Below are positions 526-61,824 of a stretch of 64,000 nt of DNA, piece after piece. The stretch comes from an uncultured delta proteobacterium (GTDB taxonomy: Bacteria > Desulfobacterota > Desulfobacteria > Desulfobacterales > JAFDCJ01), in assembly GCA_963769935.1 (NCBI GenBank), contig CAVYNY010000039.1:1-64000 (forward strand), given 5' to 3'. A program made the translations under genes and the position numbers. Numbering within the stretch: the first letter of the stretch is position 1; the number at the start of each line of letters is the position of its first letter. The notes beneath the pieces were generated by a model. That model ran no database searches, was not told where the DNA came from, and worked only from the letters and a program-made list of their open reading frames with translations.

Positions 526-1343
526 TTATTTTATAACTTTCAACCGGTGTGTCTTTTTTAACCGCTCCCACAATTCTTTGATTATCACTCCCGGTGCCTG
601 ATCCCAATGCAGATACTTATCCATGGCCACTTGCCGACACGATTCCAGCAGTCTGTCGTTTCTCGGGTAAAGCAATCGATTCCTGATATACAGTCCAAAT
701 GAAAAATGAAGGTTGGGGAGGTGATCCTCAGACATCTTCGCAATCGCCGATTTGTCTTTGAGGCTCAACTTGGAGATTAGGAAATTAACGGCTTCATCAA
801 CAGTTCCGGGCTGGTCTGTGCTCTTGGGCTTGTCAGTTTCTCTGACATCATTAGATGGTTTCTGTTTATCTTCTTTGGCTGTTACCAAGGTGAAAACCAA
901 TTCAAGCATAACAGTCACAAGGTCGCAGATTAAAGGGTCTTTAGACGCACGAGGCCCTGCTACGTTTAAAACTTCAATTTGATGTCCCGAAATCCAGTCT
1001 TCAACTATCATCGCAGCCTGGAAGGTAGGCAGCTTGTTCAGGTCTGCATGGAACCATGGTTTGCTATGCTTCATTGCCATTTTCCGTGTGTAAGCAGAAC
1101 CACCGGTTAATTTTCCATGGGATATGATCAAGGTGCCATCTGAATCGATTACGTTTTGCTCAGTTCTCTTTGGGTGGCTGCCTGTGGCATTTCTCGCAGT
1201 TGGTAAATGTCAGAAATTGGGCCATCTTCAGCAAGCCGACCACTTGGAACCCATCCACCATGTGGAATTCCCAGTTGAATGGCAGCATCCAATGCCCCCC
1301 GGTCGGCCCCAGTTTCACCCCCACTTATAATCTTTTTTATCAT
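526..1343 (-). pseudogene. Putative molybdenum carrier (SLOG/YpsA-like) protein with C-terminal extension; 1-nt frameshift near 1185
   Basis: KIISGGETGADRGALD...GGWVP (1149..1343) continues in another frame as RTEQNVIDSDGTLIISHGKLTGGS...LNVAGPRAS (526..1131). Confidence 0.8.
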
Positions 1344-3722: not shown

Positions 3723-4637
3723 TCAAGATGTCCAATTGACCAGTTTCTGCTTGGTTCTATCGTAGGCTTGTTTAACGAGCTTTTCCCCAGATGTTTCTTT
3801 CCTCAAACCGTTCCCATTATTGAAAATCTTTTTCTGGATGTGAAGATCTTCAGCGCACTCCTTAATCACGGGGGATTCTATCTTTTTTAATTCTTTTGAA
3901 TAACCTATCATCAAAGCATGGTCACAAATCGTATTAATAACCCTCGGTATGCCGCCTGAATATTTAAAAATTTTGCCAAGGGCACCTGAGCTGAATAAAT
4001 CCTTTTCCGTTCCGGCGATTTTAAGCCGATGTTTTATGTATTCATTAGTTTCGACTTTGGTTAATGATCGGAGATGGCATACTATACGATCTTTCTGCAT
4101 ATTGCCATTTGGTTTTATCTCTTTTACTAACTCAATTAATGGATTTTGACCGACCAAAACAATATTTATAAGTTGCTCACTATCCCTTTTGATTTTTGCC
4201 ATGAGATCCAAATCATTAAGCAGGCTCTTTTTTAACCGGTGCGCTTCGTCAATGATAATGAGCATCCTTTTTTTGGTTCGGGAATACTCTCCATCTATAT
4301 ACCAAAAAAATGATCTCTTATCTTCAAAGTTATTTGGTAGTTTAAAGGAATCTGCAACGAAGAGCAAAAAATCCTTACTATCAATATCTGAATCCTCTAT
4401 CGTTACAATTTTGAATTTATCATTGAGAAGCACTGCAAGACATTTAATAAGTAAGGTTTTGCCTACGCCGACATCACCTGTTAACAGCGTGATGCCTTCC
4501 CCTTTGTCGATTCGGAACTTTAAAACCGCAATTGCTTCTGATTGCCCTTCACCAGACCAAAAATATTTTGGGCTGACAGTATCCTTAAAAGGCTGCTCTT
4601 TCAAACTGTAATGTGGAAGGTACAACATATTAATCAA
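3723..4637 (-). CDS. ExeA/GspA-family AAA ATPase
   Basis: Walker A LTGDVGVGKT, Walker B LIIIDEAH, and VLVGQ and SGGIPRVINTICDHAL motifs. Confidence 0.88.
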   Translation of the reverse strand: MINMLYLPHYSLKEQPFKDTVSPKYFWSGEGQSEAIAVLKFRIDKGEGITLLTGDVGVGKTLLIKCLAVLLNDKFKIVTIEDSDIDSKDFLLFVADSFKLPNNFEDKRSFFWYIDGEYSRTKKRMLIIIDEAHRLKKSLLNDLDLMAKIKRDSEQLINIVLVGQNPLIELVKEIKPNGNMQKDRIVCHLRSLTKVETNEYIKHRLKIAGTEKDLFSSGALGKIFKYSGGIPRVINTICDHALMIGYSKELKKIESPVIKECAEDLHIQKKIFNNGNGLRKETSGEKLVKQAYDRTKQKLVNWTS

Positions 4638-6414: not shown

Positions 6415-7431
6415 TTAACTAAATAGCTTGTCCTCATCGAAGGCAACCTGATCGCGCATGATGTAGTAAGAGGCCCGAGACAGCTTGTTGCTCAATGCCT
6501 TGATTGCTACCACATTCTTGCTTCTCGCCTTTTTGCTCTGATAAAAACTGTGTGCCTTGGGACAATATCTTTTGGCAAAGTTGGCCGCCTCCACATAGGC
6601 CCAGGCCAGGTACTTGTTGCCATTTTTCTTGTTGTTCTCACCTTTTTTCTTGCCATTGGATATTCTCTTACTTTGCACACATCGACAGTAGGAAGAATAG
6701 TCACCAACTGTAGCAAAACGTCCAATATCCCCGACTTCCAGCATGATGGTCAGCGCTAAAATCTTGCCTATCCCCGGAATCGTAAGCAACTTTGCAAATT
6801 CCTTGCGCAGCTTGGCCTGTGACATGACACGCTTTTCAATGCCTCTAATAATGTGCTTCAAAAATTCAATCGTCGCCCAACTGTTGGTGGCCATCAATAC
6901 TAAATCCGGACAATCGAACAGATCTGCAACATCTATGGCGCTCAGTTTCTTGATTTCATTGTTGGATATCTTAAAACCCAGATTTCTGCTGACCATACTC
7001 TGCAGACTCAAGATCTGCGCCGTTCGCTGTCGCACAAATAAAAGCCTGCGGCGTAACAAATCCCTTACCGCTCGATTCTCCTTGGGGTAGATGTATCCTT
7101 CAGCCAGCAGGTTCAAGCGGTACATGTGCGCCAACCAAAATGCATCCCAGGGATCATCGGTATGCTTCAGTCCCTCGTATTGTTTGATTGCCGAGGGATT
7201 AGCCAAATGAACCTCGTAGCCATTGTCCTGCAGGCCGTCGACCATCCAATACCAATTGAACGTGGATTCGATTACCACCGCCTTAAGGTTTTCCTTAAAC
7301 GGTTCCAGCGCCTTCAAGACTTCCTCCAGCCGGTTGCAATGCCGCTTGCCATAAAGCCTCTTATCGTTGCCGTCGATGATTCCAATAAAATTATTACTTG
7401 AATGCAAATCAATTCCAGCGTATGTTTCCAT
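6415..7431 (-). CDS. IS110-family transposase/recombinase
   Basis: N-terminal GIDLH...IEST...HTDDPWDA (DEDD RuvC-like) and C-terminal LLTIPGIG...GDIGRF...ISNG...GNKYL (Transposase_20-like). Confidence 0.96.
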   Translation of the reverse strand: METYAGIDLHSSNNFIGIIDGNDKRLYGKRHCNRLEEVLKALEPFKENLKAVVIESTFNWYWMVDGLQDNGYEVHLANPSAIKQYEGLKHTDDPWDAFWLAHMYRLNLLAEGYIYPKENRAVRDLLRRRLLFVRQRTAQILSLQSMVSRNLGFKISNNEIKKLSAIDVADLFDCPDLVLMATNSWATIEFLKHIIRGIEKRVMSQAKLRKEFAKLLTIPGIGKILALTIMLEVGDIGRFATVGDYSSYCRCVQSKRISNGKKKGENNKKNGNKYLAWAYVEAANFAKRYCPKAHSFYQSKKARSKNVVAIKALSNKLSRASYYIMRDQVAFDEDKLFS

Positions 7432-7786: not shown

Positions 7787-8188
7787 TTATCGCAATTTAA
7801 ATCGGCCCTGCAGCAGAGGTCTGATACGAGAAATCTTTTCGAAATCTTTGTCACGATGTAAGAGGAAGGCACTATTTTCCATCGCAATCTGCGCGATACA
7901 GCAATCCACGGGGCTGTTGACCGTGACTCCCTTGCGCCTCAGTTCAAAATATATTCCGGCAGCCTCGGGCCATGTATCCTGTGATGCTTCCAGATAGTAT
8001 TGAGTCGAAAGGTATTTTTCCAGCAGCCCCCATTCTTTTTCATTAGCCGCGCCTTGCAGAAGCTCAAGCTGCTGAAATCGGCTGATTGCATAATTTTCCA
8101 CACCAATGGCTTTTTGAAAGGCTTTGACAAAATTGCCGGTTTTGTCTCTGAATATTTCTATCCAAACCGATGTGTCGACCAGGATCAT
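7787..8188 (-). CDS. vapC: VapC PIN-domain toxin
   Basis: MILVDTSVWI...ELLQG...VDCCIAQIA...LLHRDKDF PIN motifs. Confidence 0.93.
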   Translation of the reverse strand: MILVDTSVWIEIFRDKTGNFVKAFQKAIGVENYAISRFQQLELLQGAANEKEWGLLEKYLSTQYYLEASQDTWPEAAGIYFELRRKGVTVNSPVDCCIAQIAMENSAFLLHRDKDFEKISRIRPLLQGRFKLR

Positions 8189-19253: not shown

Positions 19254-19607
19254 CGGTTTTGTGTTTGATTCAACCTTTATACTTTAATCCGTATATGATA
19301 AAAAAGTCAAGCATATTAATTAGATACCTTAGGATCATTCAGGAATCATTGTCGTTTTATTGAAAAATTTATGCTTCGATTCTGCACATAACCGACTAAA
19401 TTTTATTGACAAAATATTCTGATGCCGGAAAATGGGTACAGATTATAAATTTTCCAGGTAAGTTTTATTTTATTCCAACAAACAGATTTTTAATAACCTG
19501 AACAATTGACAGAAATAATTGCCGCCGGAGTTGAATTGCCCAGCGCTTCTTATAGCATGACCCCTGCGCTGAGTGCGGCAGGTGCCTCATATCGAAGTGA
19601 ATTCTGC

Positions 19608-21216
19608 ATGAACGTCCGAAACAACATTTATTTAGCTCTGACCAGCGGACTGCTCCTGGGGCTGCCCTGGTCCGTTTCAGCTTCGTTTTTTTTCGTTTTT
19701 TTTGCCTGGATGCCCCTTTTGCTGCTGGAAGAGGAGGTTCGGCATCACGCCAACCCCTATGCCATATTCAATTATGCCTTTGTCAGTTTTTTGCTGTGGA
19801 ATATCATCGGCAGCTGGTGGATTGCCCGGGCCCAATTTGTGGGAGCCCTCTTCATCATTCTCGCAAATTCACTGCTGCAGGCCCTGGTTTTCTGGCTGGC
19901 AAGCCGTATCCGGACCATCCTGAATATTCCCCTGTTGCTTCCTTTTCTGCTCCTTTGGATGGGCTTTGAGCATTTTCATCTATCCTGGGACCTGGCCTGG
20001 CCCTGGTTCAATCTGGGCAACGCACTGGCCACAGCGCCTGAACTCATCCAATGGTACGAGTTTACCGGCGTCCGCGGCGGAACGCTCTGGATAATCCTGG
20101 CCAATTTTGCGCTCTTGCGGGTGTATCATACATATCGCAAAAAAGGCCCGGGTTCCATCGCTCCGGTTTGGCGCAGCAACCCTGATGCTCTTTCTCGTCC
20201 CCATCTGTGTATCCTATCTTCTTTTGCACAATTTTAGAGAGGGAGGTGAAACCGTCAGTATAGCTCTGATTCAGCCCAACCTGGATCCGTACACGGAAAA
20301 ATTTGACCCCCAAAATTATGATCGACACATGCAGGCATTTTTCAGGACGGCGAATGCTGTTGTCGATGACAAAACCCAGTATCTGATCGGCCCGGAAACC
20401 CTAATTGTCGAACAGATTGACGAGAGAGACCCTGCCGCATCAATCTATTACCGGGATTTGCTGAAATTCCGGGAAAAATATCCCAAACTGAATATTCTCC
20501 TCGGCGTAGACAGCTACCGGAAGCTCGGCCAAGGAGACATTCCTCCGGGCAGTCGCTACAATCGCGAAAAAAATTTTTACTACGAGGCTTTTAATACAGC
20601 GCTTTTTATACCGGCCGGCTTTCCAGCTGCACCCCAGTTTTACCACAAAACCAAGTTGGTACCCCTGTTCGAGCGCATGCCCTTTGTGCAATATCTGCAC
20701 TTTTTGGGGAAATACGCCCTCGAGCTTGGCGGATACACGGGCACTTACAGCCTTCGTCCGGCGAGCCCTGCTTTTGTATTGCCGGATGCTTCGATCACCA
20801 TACTGCCGATTGTCTGCTTTGAATCCATTTTCGGCCCCTACTGCTCCCGGAACCTGCCAAAGGAAAAAGGCTTTATCTGTATGATTACCAACGACGGATG
20901 GTGGAAAAATACGCCCGGCTATCTGTACCATTTCAATTTCAGTCCGGTGCGCGCCATTGAAAACCGGCGCGATTTTGTTCGCGCAGCCAATACAGGAATT
21001 TCTGCACTGATTGATGCCACAGGCATGGTAATCGCGCAGACGCCCTGGTGGCAGAAAGCGACCCTTCAAGGGAGGGTTCATCTTCACCGGGGCCAAACTT
21101 TCTTTGCGCGACATGGTGATTATCTGGGCCGGTATTCTTTGGTGTTCGGGGGCTTGCTGATTGTGTACGCAGGGTATCGCAAGCTGAAAAAGTCACGCAT
21201 CCAGGGGCATCGGTAA
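19608..21216 (+). CDS. lnt: Apolipoprotein N-acyltransferase; apparent +1 frameshift at TTT 20167-20169
   Basis: WPWFNLGN and QWYEFTG in the first ORF; IQPN, GPET, YHKTKLVP, IVCFES, ITNDGWW and RAANTGIS in the second. Confidence 0.88.
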
Positions 21217-21283: not shown

Positions 21284-21886
21284 TCAGCGGTTGAGGTCGA
21301 CAGGCGGCATGGACCGGGAATGGTTTTTCCCGCTGACACCGTCATAAAAAGCCCTGATGGTTTTCATATCGGCCGAAAAATTTCCGGTGGGATAAACCAA
21401 AGGACCAAATCCGCCAACCTTGCGTCCATAGTCGAGAAAGCCGAGAACAATCGGAACTTCTGCGCCGCAGGCAATATGGTAGAATCCCGATTTCCATTTG
21501 ACAACGCTTTTACGCGTTCCGGACGGTGCGATGGTTAAAATGAGTTTTTTACTCCGTTGAAATTGTTGAATCGACTGCTCAACCAGATTTTCCGAGCGGG
21601 ACCGTTGGACGGGTATGCCCCCCAGCCATTGGAAAAAGCCCTTAAAGGGCCTGCGAAAGATAGCCTTTTTACCCATCCAGTGTATTCGGGCCCTGAAAGC
21701 AAAGGCCATCAATAGGGTAAAGGGCAAGTCCCAATTCGAGGTGTGCGGAGCACCAACCAGGACAAATTTTGGGATCTGCGGCAGCCGGCCTTCCGTGCGC
21801 CACCCGGCCAGTCTTAAGATGAAACGGGAGGCCCGGTGGAAAAATGCTTCCAGGCCCGGGGTATTGAATATTGTATGATTTACCAT
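21284..21886 (-). CDS. Lysophospholipid acyltransferase (PlsC family)
   Basis: APHTSNWD and IAPSGTR motifs. Confidence 0.88.
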   Translation of the reverse strand: MVNHTIFNTPGLEAFFHRASRFILRLAGWRTEGRLPQIPKFVLVGAPHTSNWDLPFTLLMAFAFRARIHWMGKKAIFRRPFKGFFQWLGGIPVQRSRSENLVEQSIQQFQRSKKLILTIAPSGTRKSVVKWKSGFYHIACGAEVPIVLGFLDYGRKVGGFGPLVYPTGNFSADMKTIRAFYDGVSGKNHSRSMPPVDLNR

Positions 21887-22004
21887 TGTTAAAATTGTTC
21901 ACATTTCCAAACGATGCCTCTGTACCCAAAGACATCCTAACTGCTAACATTAATCATTGTTCGGCGACAATTCAAACACGCCGGCCAAAGAAATAATATC
22001 CGGG

Positions 22005-22066
22005 GATCTTGGGAACGCCCATTAATTTATAACTTTCCCGTTGTTCGACAATAATGAAAGAGCAGG
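22005..22066 (+). repeat. ~63-bp dispersed repeat, copy 3
   Basis: GATCTTGGGAACGCCCATTAATTTATAACTTTCCCGTTGTTCGACAATAATGAAAGAGCAGG. Confidence 0.8.
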
Positions 22067-22306
22067 AAGGAATGGTCCCGGGGTCGAGATCGCATTCCGA
22101 TCTGATAATATCAGGTGCCGTTGACAGATGCGGTCAAACAAGATTGGTCGTAGTTGACGGTTCGGGGAGCCAGCGAAAGGGATAACAAAAAAAATATGGC
22201 AAAAAAACAGGTTTTAGGGGCGGAGGCGAGCGGACCAAATGCCGTTAAATTATTGAAAATTAATAAAACAGGTGGTAATTATTTCAGTAAAAAGGTGATC
22301 GGAAAC

Positions 22307-22804
22307 ATGATAGACGCTGAATATTGGATTAAAAAGCTTGGTCTAAAACGGCACCCCGAAGGCGGATATTTCAAAGAAACCTATCGATCCCGTGAAGTTA
22401 TTTTGAAGCACGCTTTACCAGCGCGTTTTAAGGGTGATCGCGTGTTCTCCACCTGTATTTATTTTTTATTGAACCAAAAAGACTTTTCTGCATTTCATGT
22501 TATTCAGCAAGATGAAGTCTGGCATTTTTACGAGGGCTCATCTTTAACCATTCATGTAATCGATCGAGAAGGAGAATACAACGCCGTAAAGTTGGGAAGA
22601 AACATTGAAAGCGGCGAATCTTTTCAGGCTGTTATCGGGGCCGGCTGTTGGTTTGCAGCAGCCGTGAATAACACGGAAGCATACGCTTTAGTGGGGTGCA
22701 CGGTCGCACCTGGATTTGACTTTGCCGATTTTGAAATGGCGGATCGCAAAAAACTTGTGGCGTTGTATCCCGACCATAGGGATATTATCGAAAAATACAC
22801 CTAA
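22307..22804 (+). CDS. Cupin_5 (DUF985) family protein
   Basis: HPEGGYFKETY, DEVWHFYEG and GCTVAPGFDFADF motifs. Confidence 0.92.
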   Translation: MIDAEYWIKKLGLKRHPEGGYFKETYRSREVILKHALPARFKGDRVFSTCIYFLLNQKDFSAFHVIQQDEVWHFYEGSSLTIHVIDREGEYNAVKLGRNIESGESFQAVIGAGCWFAAAVNNTEAYALVGCTVAPGFDFADFEMADRKKLVALYPDHRDIIEKYT

Positions 22805-22852
22805 AATTTCTGCATCATAAAAGGTCAAACGATGACTTCTCCCCTATTATGA

Positions 22853-23590
22853 TCATAACCCAAGTCTGGCTATACCGTAATTATAAGCATCCTTTAAAGT
22901 AAAAATTTTCTCAATATCTTCATCAGGGATTTCCACATTAAATTCTTCTTCAAAAGACAAGACAAGCTCAACCAAGTCCAAGGAATCTGCACCAAGATCA
23001 TCAACAAAAGCAGCTTCGGGTACAACCTCTCCGGGATCAACAGAAAGCCTTTCGACAATTATTCTGGCCATTTTGTCCCACAACTTTTCTTTATCCAACG
23101 TCGTATCAACATCGTCTTTGCGTTTAGCCTCAGCCTCCCCTTGCTTGCGTTTGCGCACCGTTGCCAATGGTCGCCCCGCTTTTTCGATTTTCAGGGGTGA
23201 TGGACCGAGAATTGCTGAAAGGTCGGAAATAAGCTTTTCAAACTCAGGAGAAGATTGGGCGGGGTCCCAACTAACAAGGTCTGCGGCTTGTATGCCCCCA
23301 AAGCCCAGTGGGGGCCGTACCCTATCGATTAATATTGGGATCAATATATTCCGCTCAAGCCCCCTATCAGCTTCTTCCTGCACCCATCTTGAATCTACTG
23401 ATGTTTTAGACCATGCTACGATGACTGAGCGTGCGCTTTCGAGGGCATCTCCAATTACTTGACGCCAAGTTTTACCAGCCGGAATCGTCCGATCCCAAAA
23501 TACAGACCAACCATTCTTTTCAAGGGCTGTTACAATTGGCGCTATCTTTGATCTATCCTCTCTCGCATAGCTAATGAAAATGTCAGTCAT
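22853..23590 (-). CDS. TIR domain-acyl carrier protein fusion
   Basis: N-terminal [11 protein letters not shown]...VFWDR...SRWVQEEA (TIR); C-terminal [31 protein letters not shown] (ACP with the phosphopantetheine Ser). Confidence 0.9.
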
Positions 23591-23848
23591 AACCTTTATT
23601 CCTTAGCAGTTTAATTGCAACGTACAGTTTGCCGTTAGCACAACTTTCCGGAATGGTGAAATTGAACATAATAAATAAACTATTCAATCAGATAGGTCAA
23701 TTTATTTTCAATCGATTTTACCCAGGCAAGTCTTGTTAACCTATTTTACCAGAACGGGAAGACTCAGGTACGTCCGCCGGGGAATATGAGGATGTGAAAG
23801 ACTTGCTCAACAGCCTGAAGGGTGAATGGGCCGCAACAGCGGAGCTGA

Positions 23849-24235
23849 TCAGTTGCGAGGGCACGGAAGATGAACCACGTGAGGAGATCGAAAATTATTC
23901 AATGGGGAAATGAAAACCGCGTCGTAAAAAACAGTCTCCTTCAGGGCTTTGATGGCATCCCGGCTGAAATAAAGCGCCATGAGCTCCGACAGGCTGAAGG
24001 GGACGGGAACCGGCTTTCGGGCGGACTCCAGCAGCGCCCAGAAACCGGTGCCGTTGATCCTTTCGTTGTAGATCGGAAAACCGGCCGCCTGCAGAGCATC
24101 CAGATCCCGGTAGACGGTGCGGGGGTGGCAGTCCAGGTCGGCCGCCAGGTCGTTGACGGATTTGCCGTATATCGAACAAAGCAGTTTTTGAACAATCATC
24201 CACTGCCTTGCCAGTTGATCTCCACGAGCCATCAT
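23849..24235 (-). pseudogene. Truncated YafY/WYL-type HTH regulator (N-terminal HTH only)
   Basis: MARGDQLARQW...CHPRTVYRDLDALQAAGFPIY...FSLSELMALY; breaks off before any WYL domain. Confidence 0.8.
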
Positions 24236-24571
24236 CGCCTCCTTTTATTCCAACATTGAAAACCTGGTCCTCTGGGCCGGGATTCTTTACTTCTATTAGG
24301 ACGCAGATTCACAAAGGTTCTCAGCGATATACAAAGATTATATCGGCTATGGCTCGCTGGAACTTTAACCGGTAAGACCGTTCAACAAGACTGGCCGGCT
24401 GTTTCAAAGGACCTTGATAAGATGGTGCTGGAACCAGAAAAGTTCACCGGAGACAATTAATGAAATAAATGGTAAACGAGAGGCTGTCCAGAGGTTTGGA
24501 CCCACTTTTTCAACGGCAAAAAATTGAGGAATAATGAGGGTTATGAACCCTTCCAATCGAAAGATCCATAT

Positions 24572-27235
24572 ATGTATGACCTTATGATTTCCTACTCAAG
24601 AAATGATATCCCTTTTGTCCAAAAAATCGCCGACCTTCTTGCCGCCAAAGGGAAAGAAGTCTGGGTGGATCTAAAGGGTATATTTTATGGTGAAGAATGG
24701 TTGGAGAGAATATTTGCTGCCATAGAAGATTCGGATAATATGCTTTTTGTCCTGAGTCCTGATTCGATCAAATCTAAATATTGTATTTATGAAATCAAAC
24801 ATGCCCTAAACCACCACAAAAACATCTTGCCGATTTTATTCCGGGAAATAGCCCAAATCCAAACAATTCCTAAATATATCAGTAAACTGCAGTGGCTGAA
24901 TTACGAAAAAGATACCGATATGGATGCCGTGATCAGGGGCATTGTGGAGTTTGTCGAAGAAAATCCCAATCAGAAAAGATATCACAGCCAATTACTCAAC
25001 CGGGCCCGCCAGTGGAAAAAATTCGGACATGACAGCAGTTTGATTATGGGAAAAGACCTCGAAGAGGCAGCTGATTGGCTCAAAATATTTGAAAAAAAAT
25101 TTAAAATGAAATCCTCTTCATTGGAAAGGGAATTTATTCAAGCCAGCATTAACAAAGCCAGTCTGGTCTCGGAAATGCGGTCTGATTTGATATCCAACCA
25201 AATTCTCCGCGATCCAAACCTCGATCCGGAATTAGGAGTTGCCTTATCATTGGCGACAATTAAGGAAAACATGCTGACCGATAAATCAATTCTGGCATTA
25301 ACGCATAACCTGAAGTACGTGAAAACCATCGCTCTTTTTGACAAACATAATAAGGAAGCATTCGATAAGGAAGTTCACAGCGTTAGTATTACCTCGGATG
25401 AGCGGTTTGCCGCATCGGCCGGGGGTGACGGAACGGTACGAATTTGGAGCATAGCGACCCTTCAGGAAAAAACAGTTTACGATAGGCATGCACGCAACGC
25501 CGGCGGCGAAGCTTGGGCCGTGATGGCAGTAGATTGGTCGCCGGATAACCGTTTGATCGCATCCGGCGGCAAAGATGGTGTCCTGAGGATCTGGCATCCT
25601 TTTGAGATTGAGGATATCGCGGTGCTGCAGAAACACCAACATTGGATAAACGACCTGAAGTGGTCCCCGGACGGAAATTTCGTTGCTTCCTGTTCTCGTG
25701 ACGGCTCATTGTTGATTTGGGATACCCGGAACTGGAATCCGATAAGAAAGTTTCAATTCAGCCAATATTCATCGATTCGGGCGTTGTCCTGGAATCATGA
25801 CGCAAGCCGGATTGCAGCGGTTTCAGATTCGGGATTTATTCGGATACTCGACCCCCTGGTCGGAAAGATTTTGATGAAAAGACGCCTGTCAAAACAGGAC
25901 GCTGTATTATCTGTGGATTGGCATAGGATTACCGGCTTGATAATAACTTTTGCCAACATGATTGAAGATGAGGGAGCCGCAGTTCATATTTTGAATCCAG
26001 GCGATCTCACGGACGTTCATAAATACAACTTTCAAAAAGAATATATCCGTGATGTTAAATGGTCGAAAAATGGTGAACGGTTTGCTGCCGGGACAGACCA
26101 GGCAAGGGTATATATCTGCCAAGCCTTGAAGAAACCGGATGCGCAGATCCTGGTCGGCCATAAGAATGAAATTTCCAGTATGGCCTGGCTCGAGAACGAT
26201 ACGAAACTTGTCACATCCTCGGAAGATGCAACTGTTCGCATTTGGACCCTGGATGAAGAGCAAAAATCGCAAGTTATCGCAAAGCAATCAACGATTGTTG
26301 CCGAAGTGGGATGGACATCTGACGGCAATAAATTGATAATAGGCGGTTTTGATGGCCGGATTGATGTGCTTGACGCCCAAGATTTTAAAAAATTGCTGAC
26401 AATGCGACCTTATCCCAGGAATCATATACATCACTGGACTTTATCGCCGGACGGCTCGAAAATACTGATCGGCGCTGATTGCCGAATCGCCCGTCTGTGG
26501 GACGTCACCTCCGGCACTCAACTGCATGAGTTTAAAACTTTCAAAAATTGGACCAATGGCGTAGCCTGGTGCCCGAGAAACCAGTATATCGCCATTGGAG
26601 ATTGTGATATTCGCATCTACGAGACCCAGGATTTTCAACAGGTTAAAATTTTAAAAGGTCATGAAGAAGCTTTGGAAATAGTTGACTGGTCACCCAACGG
26701 CAGGTTTTTGGCCAGCACGGGTCTTGATATGCTGCTTATCATTTGGGATATGGATAGGATGGAAATGCCCTGGAAAATAAAGTGTCATGATGACAAGGTT
26801 TTTGCGTTGGCCTGGTCACCGGATAGTAAATATGTCGTTACAGGAGGGAAGGATAATACCGCTAAGGTCTGGCAAATTATGGATGAGAGGCCGGTCAGCA
26901 TTTTCTTAGACCATGATGCCCCCGTTTATTGCGCCAAGTGGGCTCCCAATGGAAGGTTGGTCGCAACGGGTTCGGGTGATCGTACTATTCGAATCTGGAA
27001 CCCTGCCACGGGGGAGGGTTTAATTACACTTACCGTACAAGAAGGACCGGCACACAGCATTTGTTGGGATCAAACCGGCAGTAAACTTATAAGCGGCAGT
27101 GAGGAAGGCAGTGTCAGACTCTGGGAATTAGTTGTTGAAAAAGAAAAATTGGTAGCTATTGCTAAAAGCAGAATAGTTAAGTCTTTAACTGAGAAGGAAA
27201 GATCAGAATTTGGGTTATTAAAAGAGCTTTACTAA
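24572..27235 (+). CDS. TIR domain + WD40 beta-propeller protein
   Basis: YDLMISYSR...VWVD...SKYCIYEI (TIR), a helical linker, then about 14 WD repeats (WSPDG...ASGG.DG..RIW). Confidence 0.92.
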   Translation: MYDLMISYSRNDIPFVQKIADLLAAKGKEVWVDLKGIFYGEEWLERIFAAIEDSDNMLFVLSPDSIKSKYCIYEIKHALNHHKNILPILFREIAQIQTIPKYISKLQWLNYEKDTDMDAVIRGIVEFVEENPNQKRYHSQLLNRARQWKKFGHDSSLIMGKDLEEAADWLKIFEKKFKMKSSSLEREFIQASINKASLVSEMRSDLISNQILRDPNLDPELGVALSLATIKENMLTDKSILALTHNLKYVKTIALFDKHNKEAFDKEVHSVSITSDERFAASAGGDGTVRIWSIATLQEKTVYDRHARNAGGEAWAVMAVDWSPDNRLIASGGKDGVLRIWHPFEIEDIAVLQKHQHWINDLKWSPDGNFVASCSRDGSLLIWDTRNWNPIRKFQFSQYSSIRALSWNHDASRIAAVSDSGFIRILDPLVGKILMKRRLSKQDAVLSVDWHRITGLIITFANMIEDEGAAVHILNPGDLTDVHKYNFQKEYIRDVKWSKNGERFAAGTDQARVYICQALKKPDAQILVGHKNEISSMAWLENDTKLVTSSEDATVRIWTLDEEQKSQVIAKQSTIVAEVGWTSDGNKLIIGGFDGRIDVLDAQDFKKLLTMRPYPRNHIHHWTLSPDGSKILIGADCRIARLWDVTSGTQLHEFKTFKNWTNGVAWCPRNQYIAIGDCDIRIYETQDFQQVKILKGHEEALEIVDWSPNGRFLASTGLDMLLIIWDMDRMEMPWKIKCHDDKVFALAWSPDSKYVVTGGKDNTAKVWQIMDERPVSIFLDHDAPVYCAKWAPNGRLVATGSGDRTIRIWNPATGEGLITLTVQEGPAHSICWDQTGSKLISGSEEGSVRLWELVVEKEKLVAIAKSRIVKSLTEKERSEFGLLKELY

Positions 27236-27329: not shown

Positions 27330-28907
27330 TCACGCCGGCGCCTTCCGGCCTGGCAGGAATTTTTCGCCGATGCGCCCAAACACGGCCACCTGTTCAGTTT
27401 CCCATTGTTCGTCATAACCGAGTTCGGCGGCCATCAGGGCGGCCACCTTCGGAGCCGCCTGCAGGGCCGCTTTAGCATTAAGAAAAAGACTGCGGGTTCG
27501 CCGCGCCAGGAAGTCGTCGACTGTGCGCGCCGCTTCGAACCTGACCGCCCAGACGACCTCGCCGCAAAGCGCAGACAGTGTCGGATGAATGCGTTCCTGA
27601 TGAAAAGCCTCGGCCCGCAGCAGGTCCTGAAGGGCCGGTGCGTCAGAGCCGTAATTTGCCAGGGTGCCGAATTTCTGCGGTCTTTTATGGTAGCCGTGGA
27701 TATTGAGCCGCTTGGTGACACAGGGTCTGGCGTCCAGACCGGCCAGGGTGGCGGCATGATCGACACAGTCCTGGGCCATCTGCCGATACGTCGTCCACTT
27801 GCCGCCCGCAATGGTGAGCAGCCCTGAGTTTGAAATGACAATGGTGTGGTCCCGCGAAAGTGAAGCCGTGTTCTTATCGTCGCTGGCCCCGACCAGGGGC
27901 CGAACCCCGGCAAAAACACTGAGGATGTCGTCGCGGGACGGAGCCTTTTGCAGATACGTGCCGGCCGTTTCCAAAATGAAGTCTATCTCCTCCGGCAGCG
28001 CACGCGGCTCGAGGGGTATATCAGCAATCGGAGTGTCGGTTGTCCCCACGAGGGTTGCCCCGAGATAGGGAATGGCAAACATCACCCGGCCGTCTTTGGT
28101 GTGGGGCACCATGATGGCGGACTTGCCCGGCAGAAAGCTTTTGTCGAAGACCAGATGAATTCCCTGGCTGGGTGAGATCAAGGGCCCTGCTGCGGGGTCA
28201 TCCATCCGGCGCAGATGATCGGCAAAGGGGCCGGTCGCATTAATGACAGCGCGGGCTTTGACGTGGTATTCTTTGCCCGTTTCAATGTCTTCAAAGACCG
28301 CACCGTTCAGGTACCCCGCCCGGTCATTGGTAAAAGCCACAACCCGGGCGTAGTTGAGCAATGTCGCGCCCTGCTCGGCAGCCGTCCGGGCCAGGTTTAT
28401 GAGAAGTCTGGCGTCGTCGAACTGGCCGTCATAGTAAATGACGCCCCCGCGCAGGCCTTCCGTTTTTAGCGTCGGTATCCGCTGAACGGTTTCAGCGGAC
28501 GAAAGAATCCTGGAAGGACCAAAACCATAGCGCCCCGCCAGCAAATCGTATACCTTAAGCCCGATTCCGTAGAAAGGCGCCTCCCACCAGTCGTAGTTCG
28601 GTACGATGAAGGCCAGATCATGAACCAGGTGGGGCGCATTTTCCCGCAGGATGCCGCGTTCTTTCAAGGCTTCCATCACCAGCGTGATATTCCCCTGCTG
28701 AAGATAACGCACCCCCCCATGAATTAATTTGGTGCTGCGCGAGGAAGTGCCCTTGCCGAAATCGCTTTGTTCAAGCAGCAAAATATCATAGCCGCGGGAA
28801 GCCGCATCAACGGCGATACCGATGCCGGTAGCCCCGCCGCCGACAACCAGCAGGTCCCACGGTTGGGTGCGATCCATGATTCTGCTTGTCATTTCCCCAC
28901 GGTTCAT
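27330..28907 (-). CDS. glpD: FAD-dependent glycerol-3-phosphate dehydrogenase
   Basis: VGGGATG, GTSSRSTKLIHGGVRYL, DGQFDDAR and GGKWTTYR motifs. Confidence 0.95.
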   Translation of the reverse strand: MNRGEMTSRIMDRTQPWDLLVVGGGATGIGIAVDAASRGYDILLLEQSDFGKGTSSRSTKLIHGGVRYLQQGNITLVMEALKERGILRENAPHLVHDLAFIVPNYDWWEAPFYGIGLKVYDLLAGRYGFGPSRILSSAETVQRIPTLKTEGLRGGVIYYDGQFDDARLLINLARTAAEQGATLLNYARVVAFTNDRAGYLNGAVFEDIETGKEYHVKARAVINATGPFADHLRRMDDPAAGPLISPSQGIHLVFDKSFLPGKSAIMVPHTKDGRVMFAIPYLGATLVGTTDTPIADIPLEPRALPEEIDFILETAGTYLQKAPSRDDILSVFAGVRPLVGASDDKNTASLSRDHTIVISNSGLLTIAGGKWTTYRQMAQDCVDHAATLAGLDARPCVTKRLNIHGYHKRPQKFGTLANYGSDAPALQDLLRAEAFHQERIHPTLSALCGEVVWAVRFEAARTVDDFLARRTRSLFLNAKAALQAAPKVAALMAAELGYDEQWETEQVAVFGRIGEKFLPGRKAPA

Positions 28908-48794: not shown

Positions 48795-49079
48795 ATGGCA
48801 GCCTATCTCATCGGTCACATTACCATCAAGGACCCCGTTAAATGGAACGTGTATGTCGAAGGCGTCCGAAAATCCCTGATCCCTTTTGAGGCGCAGGTCA
48901 TATTTCGCGGCCAACGCGCCTCGGTTCTGACTGGCGAGCATCCTTACCGCGATACGGTTGTCATAAAATTTGCCGACCAACCGACCTTGCAGAACTGGTA
49001 TCACTCCGAAAGTTACCAGCAATTGATTTCCACACGGGACAGCGCGGCCGATGTTGTGATCATCAGCTATGACGCCTGA
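48795..49079 (+). CDS. DUF1330-family protein
   Basis: AYLIGHITIKD...VVIKF...WYHSESYQ...RD. Confidence 0.85.
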   Translation: MAAYLIGHITIKDPVKWNVYVEGVRKSLIPFEAQVIFRGQRASVLTGEHPYRDTVVIKFADQPTLQNWYHSESYQQLISTRDSAADVVIISYDA

Positions 49080-49212
49080 GGGACCCAACAAGGATTGGGG
49101 ATTGCGGATTGCGGAATTAAATGCTAAATTGCTGCTAATTGCAAGTAGATACACCTTGCGGCAACTTGCTCCAGGCAGAAAGTATTGCGTTTCTATCGAT
49201 ACGATTAAGACA

Positions 49213-50166
49213 ATGAAATCAACCGACAACAACACCTTGGAATGCCCCGACTGCGGTGAGCCGATCAAAGCCGGCTGGAAGATCTGTCCGGCCTGCGAAT
49301 TCCGGCTGGCCGCTTTAGCCTGTCCGCTCTGCGGCCGGGAAGTCAAAGAAACCTGGAAGCGCTGCCCCGAGTGTGAAGCCCGCCTGCAGTGCAGTACCTG
49401 CGGCCGTCGGCTGGCATCGGGCCGCCGGGATTGTTTGTATTGCAAACCTCAACCATCAGACGTGGAAGAGACGGCGTCGAGCCTGATCGCTGCGCTGACC
49501 GGCATGGAATTGGTGCGGGTGCCCGGAGGCCGGTTTATGATGGGCGACACCTTTGGCGAAGGACTTGATAACGAAGGCCCGCTTCACGAGGTCGAACTGA
49601 ATCCGTTTTACATCGGCCGCCATCCCGTTACGCAGGCCCAGTGGCTGCGGGTAATGCCCATTAACCCTTCGGCCTTCAAGGGCGACAACCATCCGGTAGA
49701 GCAGGTCAGCTGGTTTGATGTCCTGAATTTTCTGCAGCAATACGCGGCGATGGCGCCGGGCGAACCCCCCTACCGCCTGCCGACCGAGGCCGAATGGGAA
49801 TACGCCGCGCGCAGCGGCGGCCGGGAGGAAAAATACGCCGGCAGCGACCCGGTTGGATCCCTGGCCTGGTTTGGCGAAAACAGTGGCGGAAGGACCCGTC
49901 CGGTCGGCTTGAAGCAGCCCAACGGACTTGGCCTGTACGACATGTGCGGCAATGTGTGGGAATGGTGTCAGGATGTTTTCGATGAGCAGGCGTACACCGG
50001 CCATAGCAAAGCAAACCCGGTGGCCGCCGGCAGCGGACCGGACCGCGTGATCCGCGGCGGCAGCTTTAATCTGGATGAATGGAGCCTGCGCTGCGCACGG
50101 CGTTTCGGTTTTCCGGCGGATGCTTGCGGCCCCGGTTTGGGATTCCGGCTGGTGAGAGACGTTTGA
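49213..50166 (+). CDS. Double zinc-ribbon + FGE/SUMF1-like domain protein
   Basis: Six CxxC pairs, then FMMG, RLPTEAEWEYAAR, GLYDMCGNVWEW and RVIRGGS. Confidence 0.9.
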   Translation: MKSTDNNTLECPDCGEPIKAGWKICPACEFRLAALACPLCGREVKETWKRCPECEARLQCSTCGRRLASGRRDCLYCKPQPSDVEETASSLIAALTGMELVRVPGGRFMMGDTFGEGLDNEGPLHEVELNPFYIGRHPVTQAQWLRVMPINPSAFKGDNHPVEQVSWFDVLNFLQQYAAMAPGEPPYRLPTEAEWEYAARSGGREEKYAGSDPVGSLAWFGENSGGRTRPVGLKQPNGLGLYDMCGNVWEWCQDVFDEQAYTGHSKANPVAAGSGPDRVIRGGSFNLDEWSLRCARRFGFPADACGPGLGFRLVRDV

Positions 50167-60676: not shown

Positions 60677-61036
60677 TTATGCCGCCAGCAAAAGGCGCGC
60701 TTCTACAATGTCCCAGGGAACATTTATCCGATCATCTTTGGCACGTCCTATCAGCCCAACATTTTCCAGACGCTGCACATCCGTATATACATTTTTATAA
60801 TCTCTTGCCAGATCGTTCGCTAAGGCACGTATGCTCATTGGACCATTTGCATGCAATCTTTTTAGCAACGTCCAACGCCCTTGAGTCAACGTCTTGAGAA
60901 GCAATTCGAGGTTTTCGAAGTGCAACCGATTTTTTTCCTGAATCGCTTCACCACGTTCAGCAAGCTTCCAAACGTCAATAAACTCCTTGGCAGTAGTTGC
61001 TGCCTCGCCTACTCCAATAGCTATTTGCTTTTTCAT
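60677..61036 (-). CDS. HVO_A0114-like HTH regulator/antitoxin
   Basis: LTQGRWTLL...SIRALANDLARDYKNVYTDV...VPWD; overlaps the upstream gene. Confidence 0.82.
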   Translation of the reverse strand: MKKQIAIGVGEAATTAKEFIDVWKLAERGEAIQEKNRLHFENLELLLKTLTQGRWTLLKRLHANGPMSIRALANDLARDYKNVYTDVQRLENVGLIGRAKDDRINVPWDIVEARLLLAA

Positions 61037-61326
61037 ATTTCTTCTCTCCTTGCTTTTTCAATCTCTGCAAGAAAATCTGCCACTAATGTTTCCACATCAA
61101 TCAAAAGATAACTTTCTTCCTGACCGCCAACATGCTTATGATCGCCTTTGCCTGATTCATTATCAAATCTTACAAGGCAGGTTCCATCACCGAGTCCGTA
61201 ATAGAGCCGATACTTCAATCCATGCGGTCTATCCGTAGACTTGCGGGGAAGCTGCCAAAGAACCATCTCGCGTATAGTACCATCAGAATATATATATCTT
61301 TCCTGGTAGAGTAACCTTGCAGCCAT
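61033..61326 (-). CDS. DUF6516 (TumE-like) toxin of a TA pair
   Basis: PHGLKYRLYY...RFDNESGKGDHKH...LVADF motifs. Confidence 0.82.
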   Translation of the reverse strand: MAARLLYQERYIYSDGTIREMVLWQLPRKSTDRPHGLKYRLYYGLGDGTCLVRFDNESGKGDHKHVGGQEESYLLIDVETLVADFLAEIEKARREEI

Positions 61327-61824
61327 ATGGCATCTTATACCATATAGCGAAATTGAAGTAAAGAAATAAAAAAGGCCGCCGGATTTTACTGACGACCTTA
61401 AAATGCCCATTTTACCCCCAAAACGGCGGCCCCAAGCCAAAAAATCGACCCTATTTTTAGCTCTTTCCCCTATTACCAACTACTTGCGGTGGTCCGATCC
61501 CTTTTCCATCAATATGCTCAAAGTCATTGTCCGCAAACTCCGCATTCGGCACATGCGCTTTTCGAGTTTGACATTTCCGTGACAGCCGCGGTAAGAATCG
61601 GATATCAGACATCGATCCGGAGAAACAGTGTAGCCTTCATGCCGGCGCCTGCATCAGGCAAACTCGCGTGTTGCAAAATCCACAAAATTATTCCGGATCA
61701 TGGCTGAAAGAGTTTCATCCAGAGTCCGTTCCAATCGATTCTGTAGTTTTCGACAACCATTAACAACTGCGCGATCAGCAACGCCGATGCTTCAACCGCC
61801 GTCTTGGCAGAAAGGACGAATCGC

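Follow-up and report, generated by a model that had tools for sequence, protein, structure and literature searches.

Why would a bacterium join a TIR domain to an acyl carrier protein (ACP), and does the ACP serve there as a carrier or as a surface to be recognized? The question is raised by one gene in a 64,000-nucleotide stretch of DNA (the window) from an uncultured member of the Desulfobacterales (positions 1 to 64,000 of contig CAVYNY010000039.1). A preliminary description of this sequence had proposed that the ACP is an integrated decoy or sensor for phage or toxin proteins that target ACP, or that its acylation state controls oligomerization of the TIR domain. Here, these proposals are considered together with the architecture of the protein, its relatives, its gene neighbourhood and the systems known from the literature.

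Architecture of the TIR-ACP protein

According to the ORF list and its translation, the gene is a single uninterrupted ORF of 245 aa at 22853..23590 on the minus strand, with an ATG start four codons past the upstream stop. The clean reading frame with a TIR and an ACP domain given in the preliminary description was confirmed; the strand, which was missing there, is minus. The following features were assigned to the gene:

22853..23590, minus strand: whole TIR-ACP gene (245 codons plus the stop codon at 22853..22855; two Pfam domains in one frame)
23180..23590, minus strand: TIR domain, residues 1-137 (Pfam TIR_2, a TIR-only AlphaFold2 model and the match to AbTir)
23372..23374, minus strand: codon of Glu73, the catalytic-position Glu (aligned with the Glu of AbTIR 'YELD')
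23093..23179, minus strand: charged flexible linker, residues 138-166 (pLDDT <50 for 138-163)
22856..23092, minus strand: AcpP-derived ACP domain, residues 167-245 (Pfam PP-binding and NCBIfam ACP models; tail R242-L243-G-L)
22982..22984, minus strand: codon of Ser203, the phosphopantetheine attachment position in DLGADSLD (read from the sequence)

We propose that the product, a protein of two modules, is soluble and located in the cytoplasm of a Desulfobacterales-type bacterium. Scans for promoters and terminators around the gene gave counts no higher than those of shuffled sequences, a scan for tRNA genes around the gene found none, and there were no Rfam matches.

Residues 4-120 match the Pfam family TIR_2 (E 1.6e-24, 87.2 bits against a cut-off of 28), and the AlphaFold2 model of the TIR domain alone has a pLDDT of 90 and a pTM of 0.85. 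In Foldseek searches, the best PDB match of the TIR half is AbTir (7uxu, there with 3AD bound; TM 0.75, E 1.8e-7), and the TIRs of SPARTA, SARM1, MyD88 and BtpA are matched at TM 0.6-0.8; AbTIR is also matched in sequence (E 2e-4). The catalytic-position Glu that had been noticed within SRWVQEE is present as E73. In the alignment with AbTIR it falls on the Glu of 'YELD', it is kept in all 19 TIR-ACP proteins described below, and the same position is invariant across the 125 nearest TIR representatives. Fold, TIR_2 match and catalytic-position Glu are shared with the NADase TIRs (AbTir, TcpB/BtpA, ThsB of Thoeris, SPARTA and SARM1), none of which, however, possesses an ACP as its C-terminal module. 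Judged from its residues, the TIR domain looks catalytically competent, and the protein is presumably an NADase.

The linker had been called basic, which is loosely right at most: residues 138-166 carry a net charge of +2, but the composition is mixed-charged, with E/K/R/D accounting for 56% of the 34 residues that lie between positions 135 and 170 of the alignment. In 13 of the 19 proteins of the family, the linker is 34-35 aa long. In the AlphaFold2 model of the full-length protein (pTM 0.54), pLDDT exceeds 90 in the TIR domain, is about 87 in the ACP domain and falls below 50 in residues 138-163 of the linker, so the two domains are predicted not to dock.

The C-terminal module is a complete AcpP-like domain containing DLGADSLD, as previously described, with Ser203 intact. 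Pfam PP-binding matches residues 173-234 (E 2.6e-11, 44.1 bits against a cut-off of 20.8). Over residues 167-238, the NCBIfam ACP models NF002148 (100.3 bits, cut-off 71), NF002151 (96.1, cut-off 92) and TIGR00517 (84.4, cut-off 70.45) are passed, the latter two with equivalog cut-offs, and NF002149 (88.5, cut-off 106) and NF002147 (64.1, cut-off 84) remain below theirs. Foldseek superimposes the ACP half on solved AcpPs with a target TM of 0.85-0.95, an rmsd of about 1 A and 54-58% identity, and all 50 listed matches of the whole protein are ACPs.

The domain has the four-helix fold, the DSL motif and the acidic helix II of the housekeeping AcpP of type II fatty acid synthesis (FAS), to which it is 54-73% identical among the matches listed. 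AcpP is a separate protein of some 78 aa whose gene lies in a fab cluster; the ACP domain of TIR-ACP makes up the last third of a protein of 245 aa, and its gene is in no fab cluster. Pfam families of FAS, fab, PKS, NRPS or PPTase proteins were not found among the 49 window ORFs scanned, which were selected ORFs of at least 120 aa, a size that a small AcpS-type PPTase could escape. The ACP domains of the family also have features that are absent from housekeeping AcpP: W171 (15/19), M174 (13), Y236 (14), G239 (12) and a C-terminal tail with R/K242 (19/19) and L243 (15/19). Lys175 occurs in only two of the 19 proteins, compared with 90% of AcpPs, and the end branches of the TIR-ACP domains (0.4-2.6) are longer than those of AcpPs (median 0.13).

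Recurrence of the fusion and exchange of its modules

The architecture, whose recurrence the preliminary description had proposed to check, was found in 18 further TIR + PP-binding proteins. Together with the window protein, they make up 19 distinct TIR-ACP proteins on independent contigs; the 18 others are 33-87% identical, some of them occur on 10 and 39 contigs, and one is named from a Desulfosarcina/Desulfobacterales MAG. Because the architecture recurs in this way, the TIR-ACP protein is not a product of chance or chimerism. An assembly chimera or a mis-called ORF fusing a TIR gene with acpP, for which we found no supporting point beyond the rarity of the fusion (PP-binding in one of the 125 nearest TIR representatives), is ruled out by the independent contigs and has a negligible probability; the frame is clean, and the family-specific residues of the ACP are not those of a free AcpP. 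At least three members are publicly annotated simply as 'acyl carrier protein', a label that hides TIR-ACPs from surveys of defence and of lipid metabolism alike.

Other collections returned little. A profile search of genome contigs gave no full-length TIR-ACP among the 80 loci listed of 599 matching stretches: L001-L005 have the TIR only and L006-L080 the ACP part only, with housekeeping acpP genes dominating. The phage collection gave no match to TIR-ACP, 18 plasmid records were matched with none covering at least 80% of the query, and the ESM Atlas search gave generic TIR clusters only, with scores up to 0.80.

The nearest relatives of the TIR domain were surveyed in the first 125 of 150 representatives by rank, the last 25 lying outside the census. 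The TIR is N-terminal in all 125, and the C-terminal Pfam domains among them include FGE-sulfatase (10), TPR (3), PEGA (3), Sel1 (2) and PP-binding (1). A transmembrane (TM) segment is predicted after the TIR in 80 of 117 near relatives versus none of the 11 TIR-ACPs compared there; in the whole family it is absent from 18 of 19, P0358 having a hydrophobic segment. The TIR domain belongs to a large chassis of the type 'TIR + linker + variable C-terminus', in which the ACP is a rare soluble module.

Modules have been shuffled within this chassis. The TIR of the TIR-ACP protein P0001, a member of clade A, is 70-77% identical to TIRs carrying PEGA, FGE-sulfatase or PF20701, but compared with the TIRs of TIR-ACPs, its identity falls to 47-52% in the other subgroups of clade A and to 24-32% in clade B. 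TIRs of both clades are found joined to the same ACP module, and ACP identity across the TIR clades is 47-61%. The two trees, built by 'quick' searches from short alignments of 79 and 135 columns, contain several long branches. On them, the AU test rejected a single clade for the TIRs of TIR-ACPs (delta lnL 255, p-AU 3e-25) and did not reject one for the ACP domains (p-AU 0.76), for which the constrained tree was 11.5 lnL better. The ACP domains fit one clade and their TIRs do not; therefore, the ACP module has passed from one TIR type to another.

Gene neighbourhood and known systems

The immediate neighbours of the TIR-ACP gene, whose neighbourhood was seen in one window, are a cupin gene and the following two features:

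23849..24235, minus strand: wHTH fragment of a WYL-type regulator, 128 aa, upstream (Pfam HTH_11)
24524..27235, plus strand: TIR (clade-B-like) with two WD40 propellers, 903 aa, divergent (WD40/propeller from Pfam; TIR from PADLOC and NCBIfam)

The PADLOC WYL model covers the wHTH fragment at positions 2-93 of 229 only, no continuation of the fragment was found in other frames, and its link to the TIR-ACP system is uncertain. The true start of the TIR-WD40 gene is likely the ATG at 24572. Together with the lower-GC stretch in which they lie, the adjoining TIR-WD40 gene and HTH fragment suggest a conflict-gene setting.

The TIR-WD40 protein is a possible partner of TIR-ACP. Such a pair, in which a clade-A TIR joined to ACP and a divergently encoded clade-B TIR joined to WD40 would divide the roles of sensor and helper or executor as do paired plant TIR receptors, is suggested by the 934 bases of lower-GC sequence that separate the genes, and by the neighbour's TIR, for which the score is about 50 bits with the TIR of P0137 (clade B) but 15-18 bits with that of P0001 (clade A). 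It would also be in keeping with the joining of both clades to one ACP module and with the tandem A+B TIRs of P0292, P0243 and P0062, in which the second of the two TIRs matches clade B with 120-131 bits. However, the adjacency comes from one window only, the neighbour's TIR is only 27-32% identical to clade-B TIRs, and of the 125 representatives, 14 have tandem TIRs, mostly in the arrangement A+A, so we regard the pair as distinctly unlikely.

Genes of housekeeping type are also near: a PlsC-type acyltransferase (21284..21886), lnt (19506..21216) and a glpD-like gene (27330..28907). They bring up a non-immune role, in which the TIR would be a scaffold or regulatory enzyme of lipid or envelope metabolism, brought by its ACP to ACP-dependent machinery such as acyltransferases. 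The ordinary chromosomal setting amid such genes would suit this role, as would the membrane anchors and envelope-type outer domains of most chassis relatives. The three genes, however, are on other strands or behind other genes, the nearest neighbours are instead a second TIR protein and the HTH fragment, and the family keeps the catalytic Glu without exception, as NADase TIRs do; on balance, a non-immune role appears very unlikely.

An immune role of TIR-ACP is suggested by the identity of its domains. In TIR-ACP, PADLOC matched the TIR alone, and weakly (best PDC-S66, E 2.2e-11), and it called no defence system. Among the window ORFs scanned, TIR-ACP has neither a fused nor a neighbouring partner of the ThsA, Argonaute, STING, SAVED or STAND kind. 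The ThsB_TIR model scores 21.5 bits against a cut-off of 21.2, and the PADLOC ThsB matches have E-values of 1e-5 or worse; membership in Thoeris was rejected, as no ThsA gene is adjacent and a lone SLOG-type gene lies 22 kb off (526..1131). Membership in TIR-ParA systems was rejected as well, since the scan of 49 window ORFs showed no ParA Pfam family, the closest P-loop protein in it being an AAA_22 protein (3723..4637).

TIR-ParA systems nevertheless hold the closest precedent in the literature. In the available portion of a 2026 preprint on these systems (10.64898/2026.10.19.760177), a domain of the PP-binding superfamily is listed as a predicted sensor, and in the 'receptor-like subtype' a PP-binding-type domain is one of many swappable C-terminal sensors attached to a constant cytoplasmic N-terminus, in a TIR-linked system that is predicted to be immune. 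As far as that portion goes, the constant domain is ParA, the sensor is located beyond a TM helix and the TIR is encoded upstream by a gene of its own, whereas in TIR-ACP the TIR itself is joined to the ACP. Our literature searches found no published description of a direct TIR-ACP fusion, in agreement with the preliminary description, which knew of none. In the part available, the main text of two eLife papers on conflict systems (PMC7159879, PMC8195603) contains neither acyl carrier, ACP nor phosphopantetheine.

Role of the ACP module

The 19 ACP domains differ at the carrier residue and agree on the surface around it. The attachment Ser is kept in 15 of them, the window protein included, compared with 77 of 77 housekeeping AcpPs; it is replaced by E in P0006 and P0367, by D in P0364 and by A in P0037. 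These four replacements fall in separate subclades, with the neighbouring residues invariant, and the Ser is dispensable in 4 of 19. On the helix II surface, each of D202, L204, D205, E208, L209 and E214 is conserved in 19 of 19. By these counts, the recognition surface is more constrained than the carrier residue (19/19 vs 15/19).

The ACP might alternatively act through its cofactor or acyl state, as a metabolic guard that is phosphopantetheinylated and loaded by host FAS and whose apo, holo or acyl form changes during infection or lipid stress, leading to a conformational change that releases or activates the TIR. The window protein retains Ser203 as well as a complete helix II for recognition by AcpS and FAS, passes equivalog cut-offs of housekeeping ACPs and has a fold nearly identical to that of solved AcpPs, all of which would fit this mechanism. 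Against it are the separate Ser losses, the absence of any predicted docking of ACP on TIR, and changes in many members at positions 7, 59, 69 and 72 of E. coli AcpP, which we take to line the acyl pocket. We consider it rather unlikely; the earlier proposal that acylation controls TIR oligomerization is weakened by the four replacements but may still apply to the 15 proteins with Ser, the window protein among them, so that holo- or acyl-ACP chemistry may yet play a part in most of the family. The Ser losses also disfavour the phosphopantetheine thiol as an ADP-ribose acceptor of the TIR.

Our preferred reading, to which we assign a probability of about 0.42, is that the ACP works not as an acyl carrier but as bait or as a partner-recognition module, through which the TIR NADase is controlled. 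The N-terminal TIR would provide the output by consuming NAD+, as an enzyme of the AbTir, SARM1 or ThsB type, and would be joined by a disordered tether of about 30 residues to an ACP that probably derives from the lineage's own fatty-acid-synthesis AcpP. As sensor or bait, this ACP would fill the place held in most chassis relatives by a TM helix and an outer sensor domain. An ACP-binding protein would engage the module via the universal helix II surface; a multimeric or multivalent binder would gather TIR domains, and their self-association would turn on NAD+ cleavage, resulting in growth arrest or a signal.

The recognition part of the earlier decoy or sensor proposal fits the invariant helix II, the loss of Ser in four of 19 proteins, the chassis with its many modules and the movement of the ACP module. 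Its other part, that the ACP is bait for phage or toxin proteins attacking ACP, gained no support, as our searches found no relevant phage or toxin factor acting on ACP. The ACP is also an imperfect mimic, because W171, Y236, G239 and the R/K-L tail are absent from housekeeping AcpP; these family-specific residues might point to a partner of their own or to a changed acyl pocket instead of mimicry.

Integrated-decoy receptors are known from plants, for example RRS1-WRKY, where TIR receptors act in pairs, one of which carries the integrated domain. The likeness to TIR-ACP lies in a homologue of a host hub built into an immune-signalling protein and in a second, divergent TIR gene beside it; the difference is that TIR-ACP has no NB-ARC or STAND module. 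In its boldest form, the preferred reading would make TIR-ACP a true bacterial integrated decoy: a cofactor-independent AcpP copy with its docking helix kept, tethered to a TIR NADase, so that a phage or toxin protein grabbing ACP triggers NAD+ depletion, with the cassette passed between TIR chassis and perhaps acting with TIR-WD40 like paired plant TIR receptors. We consider this full form rather unlikely. In bacteria, an integrated decoy has been hypothesized for bNACHT11, according to the available part of the source (PMC11702601), and the use of host-protein mimics as bait, established in plants, is there only a hypothesis so far.

TIR proteins with interchangeable sensor domains are already known in bacterial immunity. 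No description was found, however, of a direct TIR fusion whose variable module is an almost intact copy of an essential housekeeping protein of hub type. Its invariant docking helix, together with a cofactor Ser lost four times, is an informative pattern and offers a handle on host-protein mimics as bait. If the preferred reading is true, binders of the TIR-fused ACP would expose invader factors directed against fatty-acid synthesis or other ACP-dependent machinery.

The TIR-ACP gene, its product and its relatives

The preliminary description had reported a TIR domain fused in one ORF to a complete AcpP-like domain, and the following features were located in the gene and in its 245-aa product, P0001.

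Features of the TIR-ACP gene and protein
22853..23590, minus strand: TIR-ACP gene, a single uninterrupted ORF of 245 codons
22982..22984, minus strand: codon of Ser203 in the DLGADSLD motif
Residues 4-120: TIR_2 domain (Pfam, E 1.6e-24, 87 bits, cut-off 28)
Glu73 (E73): second Glu of SRWVQEE, aligned with the Glu of YELD in AbTIR
Residues 173-234: PP-binding domain (Pfam, E 2.6e-11, 44 bits, cut-off 20.8)

The ATG start codon lies four codons past an in-frame stop, and both Pfam domains score above their cut-offs within the one ORF. Residues 167-238 match NCBIfam models of housekeeping ACPs, passing the curated cut-offs of NF002148 (100.3 vs 71), NF002151 (96.1 vs 92) and TIGR00517 (84.4 vs 70.45) and falling short of those of NF002149 and NF002147. 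In a structure search, solved AcpPs superposed on this half with a target TM of 0.85-0.95, an rmsd of ~1 A and 44-58% identity. The TIR modelled alone (pLDDT 90, pTM 0.85) was closest to the AbTir TIR with the NAD analogue 3AD (7uxu, TM 0.75), followed by SPARTA, SARM1, MyD88, BtpA and PdTIR. The fusion, the Glu at the catalytic position of SRWVQEE and the AcpP-like domain with DLGADSLD were thus all borne out. The “basic linker” was so only in its net charge (+2 for residues 138-166; the ACP carries -12), as 56% of the 34 residues lying between alignment positions 135 and 170 are E, K, R or D, a mixed-charged composition. AlphaFold2 (83-row alignment) folded the TIR (pLDDT >90) and the ACP (~87) confidently and left residues 138-163 disordered (pLDDT <50); with a pTM of 0.54, the placement of the two domains relative to each other is therefore not confident.

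Searches of a 5.8-billion-protein set and a 1.84-billion representative set retrieved 18 further distinct proteins with the same fusion, giving 19 with P0001 on independent contigs, plus one fragment (P0007). Relative to P0001, identity is 66-87% for P0002-P0006, ~50% for P0020, P0237, P0355, P0037 and P0358, and ~40% for P0367, whereas P0137, P0138, P0356, P0357, P0359, P0364 and P0376 have a clearly different TIR and are 33-37% identical overall. P0004 is carried by 10 contigs and P0020 by 39, and P0359, from a Desulfosarcina sp. / Desulfobacterales MAG, is named “acyl carrier protein” in one source. An assembly chimera is excluded by this recurrence, and an artefact is given negligible weight. 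None of the 18 matching records in a plasmid collection held a full-length TIR-ACP match, and a phage collection gave no match. The tether between the domains measures 34-35 residues in 13 of the 19 members, spanning both TIR clades, with outliers of 24, 29, 60, 103 and 128 residues and a poorly conserved sequence. The ACP-region search also returned P0121 and P0123 (182-203 aa), in each of which two nearly identical copies of AcpP stand in tandem; they bear no relation to the TIR fusion.

Modular TIR proteins and shuffling of the ACP module

With the E-value limit at 1e-3, the surrounding TIR clade numbers 45,341 representatives, and with 1e-30 still 1,676. Among the first 125 of its 150 nearest representatives, taken in rank order, the TIR is N-terminal in all 125 and the majority have no recognised C-terminal domain; the remainder carry FGE-sulfatase (10), TPR (3), PEGA (3), Sel1 (2), CarboxypepD_reg (2) and single occurrences of Lcl_C, PDZ, HlyD, cytochrome c, DUF4062 and PP-binding, so that, with PP-binding in 1 of 125, the TIR-ACP family is small relative to its clade. 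Of the 117 representatives with at least 40 residues behind the TIR, 80 have a hydrophobic stretch there (Kyte-Doolittle mean of at least 1.6 over 19 residues) vs none of the 11 TIR-ACPs found first. Most relatives therefore have the appearance of single-pass receptors, their TIR cytoplasmic and their variable domain outside; TIR-ACP is a soluble form of this, the ACP occupying the place of the variable part. Among the eight TIR-ACPs found later, the one analysed in this respect, the 337-aa P0358, has a strongly hydrophobic segment between TIR and ACP (mean 1.86, about residues 189-213); if this crosses the membrane once, its two domains would end up on opposite sides, recalling the receptor-like PP-binding sensors mentioned in the available text of the TIR-ParA preprint (bioRxiv 10.64898/2026.10.19.760177).

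The TIR and linker start of P0001 are 70-77% identical to those of proteins ending in PEGA (P0009), PF20701 (P0015) or FGE-sulfatase (P0029, P0361), vs 47-52% for the TIRs of other TIR-ACPs of its own type (clade A) and 24-32% for those of the second type (clade B). In a TIR-domain tree of 135 rows, 19 of them labelled, the TIR-ACP label requires nine changes, at least three of them forced by starred branches, and a single clade of TIR-ACP TIRs is rejected (AU test, delta lnL 255, p 3e-25). The ACP-domain tree combined the 19 TIR-linked ACPs with 77 housekeeping AcpPs from the listed genome-contig loci (80 kept, 599 stretches matched). The free search required five changes for the TIR-linked label; the tree holding these ACPs together was 11.5 lnL better (p-AU 0.76), which leaves a single clade not rejected rather than proven. 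Both this and the TIR tree are quick searches of short alignments with long branches. In an earlier 11-member tree, a weakly supported branch (53) set the TIR-linked ACPs apart, and 10 of them were grouped at 87. ACPs of the two TIR clades are 47-61% identical to each other. These comparisons fit an ACP module that arose once and was then passed from one TIR type to another. The closest free AcpP among the matches listed, from an uncultured deltaproteobacterium (L006), is 73% identical, and capture from the lineage's own acpP would fit, a source that the tree does not resolve.

Genomic surroundings

Two neighbouring genes lie next to TIR-ACP:
23849..24235, minus strand: wHTH protein, 128 aa, upstream of TIR-ACP on the same strand
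24524..27235, plus strand: TIR-WD40, 903 aa, divergent, N-terminal TIR and two WD40 propellers

The wHTH aligns with a WYL-regulator model of 229 positions over positions 2-93 only, and no frame continues it into a WYL domain; it has the look of a truncated regulator left behind between two TIR genes. TIR-WD40, which probably starts at the ATG at 24572, has a TIR scoring ~50 bits to clade-B TIRs vs 15-18 bits to clade A, with 27-32% identity to clade B and the Glu retained. Tandem TIR proteins number 14 among the 125 representatives; P0292, P0243 and P0062 join a clade-A to a clade-B TIR, and most of the others examined are A+A. The A+B fusions and the occurrence of the same ACP module on clade-A and clade-B TIRs are a lead for cooperation between the two types, though one based on a single neighbourhood. 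That TIR-ACP is one half of a pair with TIR-WD40 is rated improbable.

At about 22000..27000 (cupin, TIR-ACP, HTH fragment, TIR-WD40) GC is 41-48% vs 50-60% in the flanks, which is compatible with an acquired islet. PADLOC called no defence system, TIR-ACP and TIR-WD40 included. A non-immune lipid or envelope role is rated slightly lower than the pairing. No FAS, PKS, NRPS, PPTase or ParA Pfam families were reported among 49 selected window ORFs of at least 120 aa. The remaining window is ordinary chromosome with scattered conflict- or mobile-type genes: cpYpsA SLOG + DUF6794 (526..1131), an AAA_22 ATPase (3723..4637), an IS110 transposase (6415..7431), a PIN protein (7787..8188), a TumE toxin (61033..61479) and a zinc-ribbon + FGE-sulfatase gene (49069..50166), the latter domain being frequent also on the relatives of the TIR. 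The gene lnt (apolipoprotein N-acyltransferase; 19506..21216, plus strand) is split into overlapping frames for LNT_N (19506..20237) and CN_hydrolase (20107..21216), the result of a frameshift or else of a sequencing error.

Conservation of the ACP and its proposed role

Columns were compared between 11 TIR-linked ACPs and the 77 housekeeping AcpPs, and then with all 19. The helix II docking residues D202, L204, D205, E208, L209 and E214 are each kept in 19 of 19, whereas Ser203 is kept in 15 of 19 vs 77 of 77, with replacement by Glu (P0006, P0367), Asp (P0364) or Ala (P0037) in four different subclades.

Positions distinguishing TIR-linked ACPs from housekeeping AcpPs (P0001 numbering; E. 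coli AcpP position in brackets, offset from the alignment)
171 (4): W in 15/19; AcpP E, A or D
174 (7): M in 13/19; AcpP V, 84%
175 (8): K in 2/19; AcpP K, 90%
236 (69): Y in 14/19; AcpP I or V
239 (72): G in 12/19; AcpP I, 77%
242: R or K in 19/19; AcpP His or Lys commonest (38%, 25%)
243: L in 15/19; AcpP gap in 35%

E. coli positions 7, 69 and 72 presumably line the acyl pocket. End branches are 0.4-2.6 for TIR-linked ACPs vs a median of 0.13 for AcpP. We read this pattern as that of a domain probably selected to be recognised as an ACP, with an added surface, and not to carry acyl chains. That the ACP senses its cofactor or acyl state, akin to the earlier idea of acylation controlling TIR oligomerisation, accords with the serine in 15 members, sits poorly with its loss in the other four, and is unlikely, though the strongest of the alternatives.

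Our preferred reading, held tentatively at a probability of about 0.4, is that the TIR would be an NAD+-consuming output and the ACP a tethered recognition or bait module engaged via helix II, such that a multivalent ACP-binding factor could bring the TIRs together and so activate them. The data show the architecture, the conservation pattern, the modularity and the shuffling; the enzyme activity, the immune role and the ligand of TIR-ACP are inferred. Activation by clustering is proposed because AbTir, SARM1 and plant TIRs are activated in this way. The remaining probability falls to explanations outside those considered. The earlier proposal of a decoy or sensor survives as far as a recognition module is concerned; its decoy version is weakened, since literature on phage or toxin factors targeting ACP yielded none, and the family-specific residues would make the ACP an imperfect mimic.

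Literature searches on TIR with acyl carrier, PP-binding or phosphopantetheine terms brought up no description of a direct TIR-ACP fusion, in line with the preliminary description, and the main text of two conflict-system comparative-genomics papers (PMC7159879, PMC8195603) gave no match for ACP terms. Membership of Thoeris or TIR-ParA was rejected because the partner genes are absent among the window ORFs scanned, and the ACP, while homologous to AcpP, is not a free AcpP. The nearest precedent, going by the available text, is the TIR-ParA preprint, in whose “receptor-like subtype” ParA bears variable extracellular sensors, “e.g., Phosphopantetheine-binding superfamily”. The idea of a PP-binding fold as immune sensor is common to both, but there ParA is the constant domain, the sensor lies outside a TM helix and the TIR is a separate gene. 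An integrated decoy has been put forward for bacterial bNACHT11 only as a hypothesis, in a discussion passage (PMC11702601).

TIR-ACP is a genuine fusion, rare and not yet characterised, and adds a version to the known design that pairs a TIR effector with a swappable sensor. Most telling is its conservation pattern, in which the docking helix is invariant and the cofactor serine next to it dispensable; this reduces the bait-versus-carrier question to a few simple mutant experiments.
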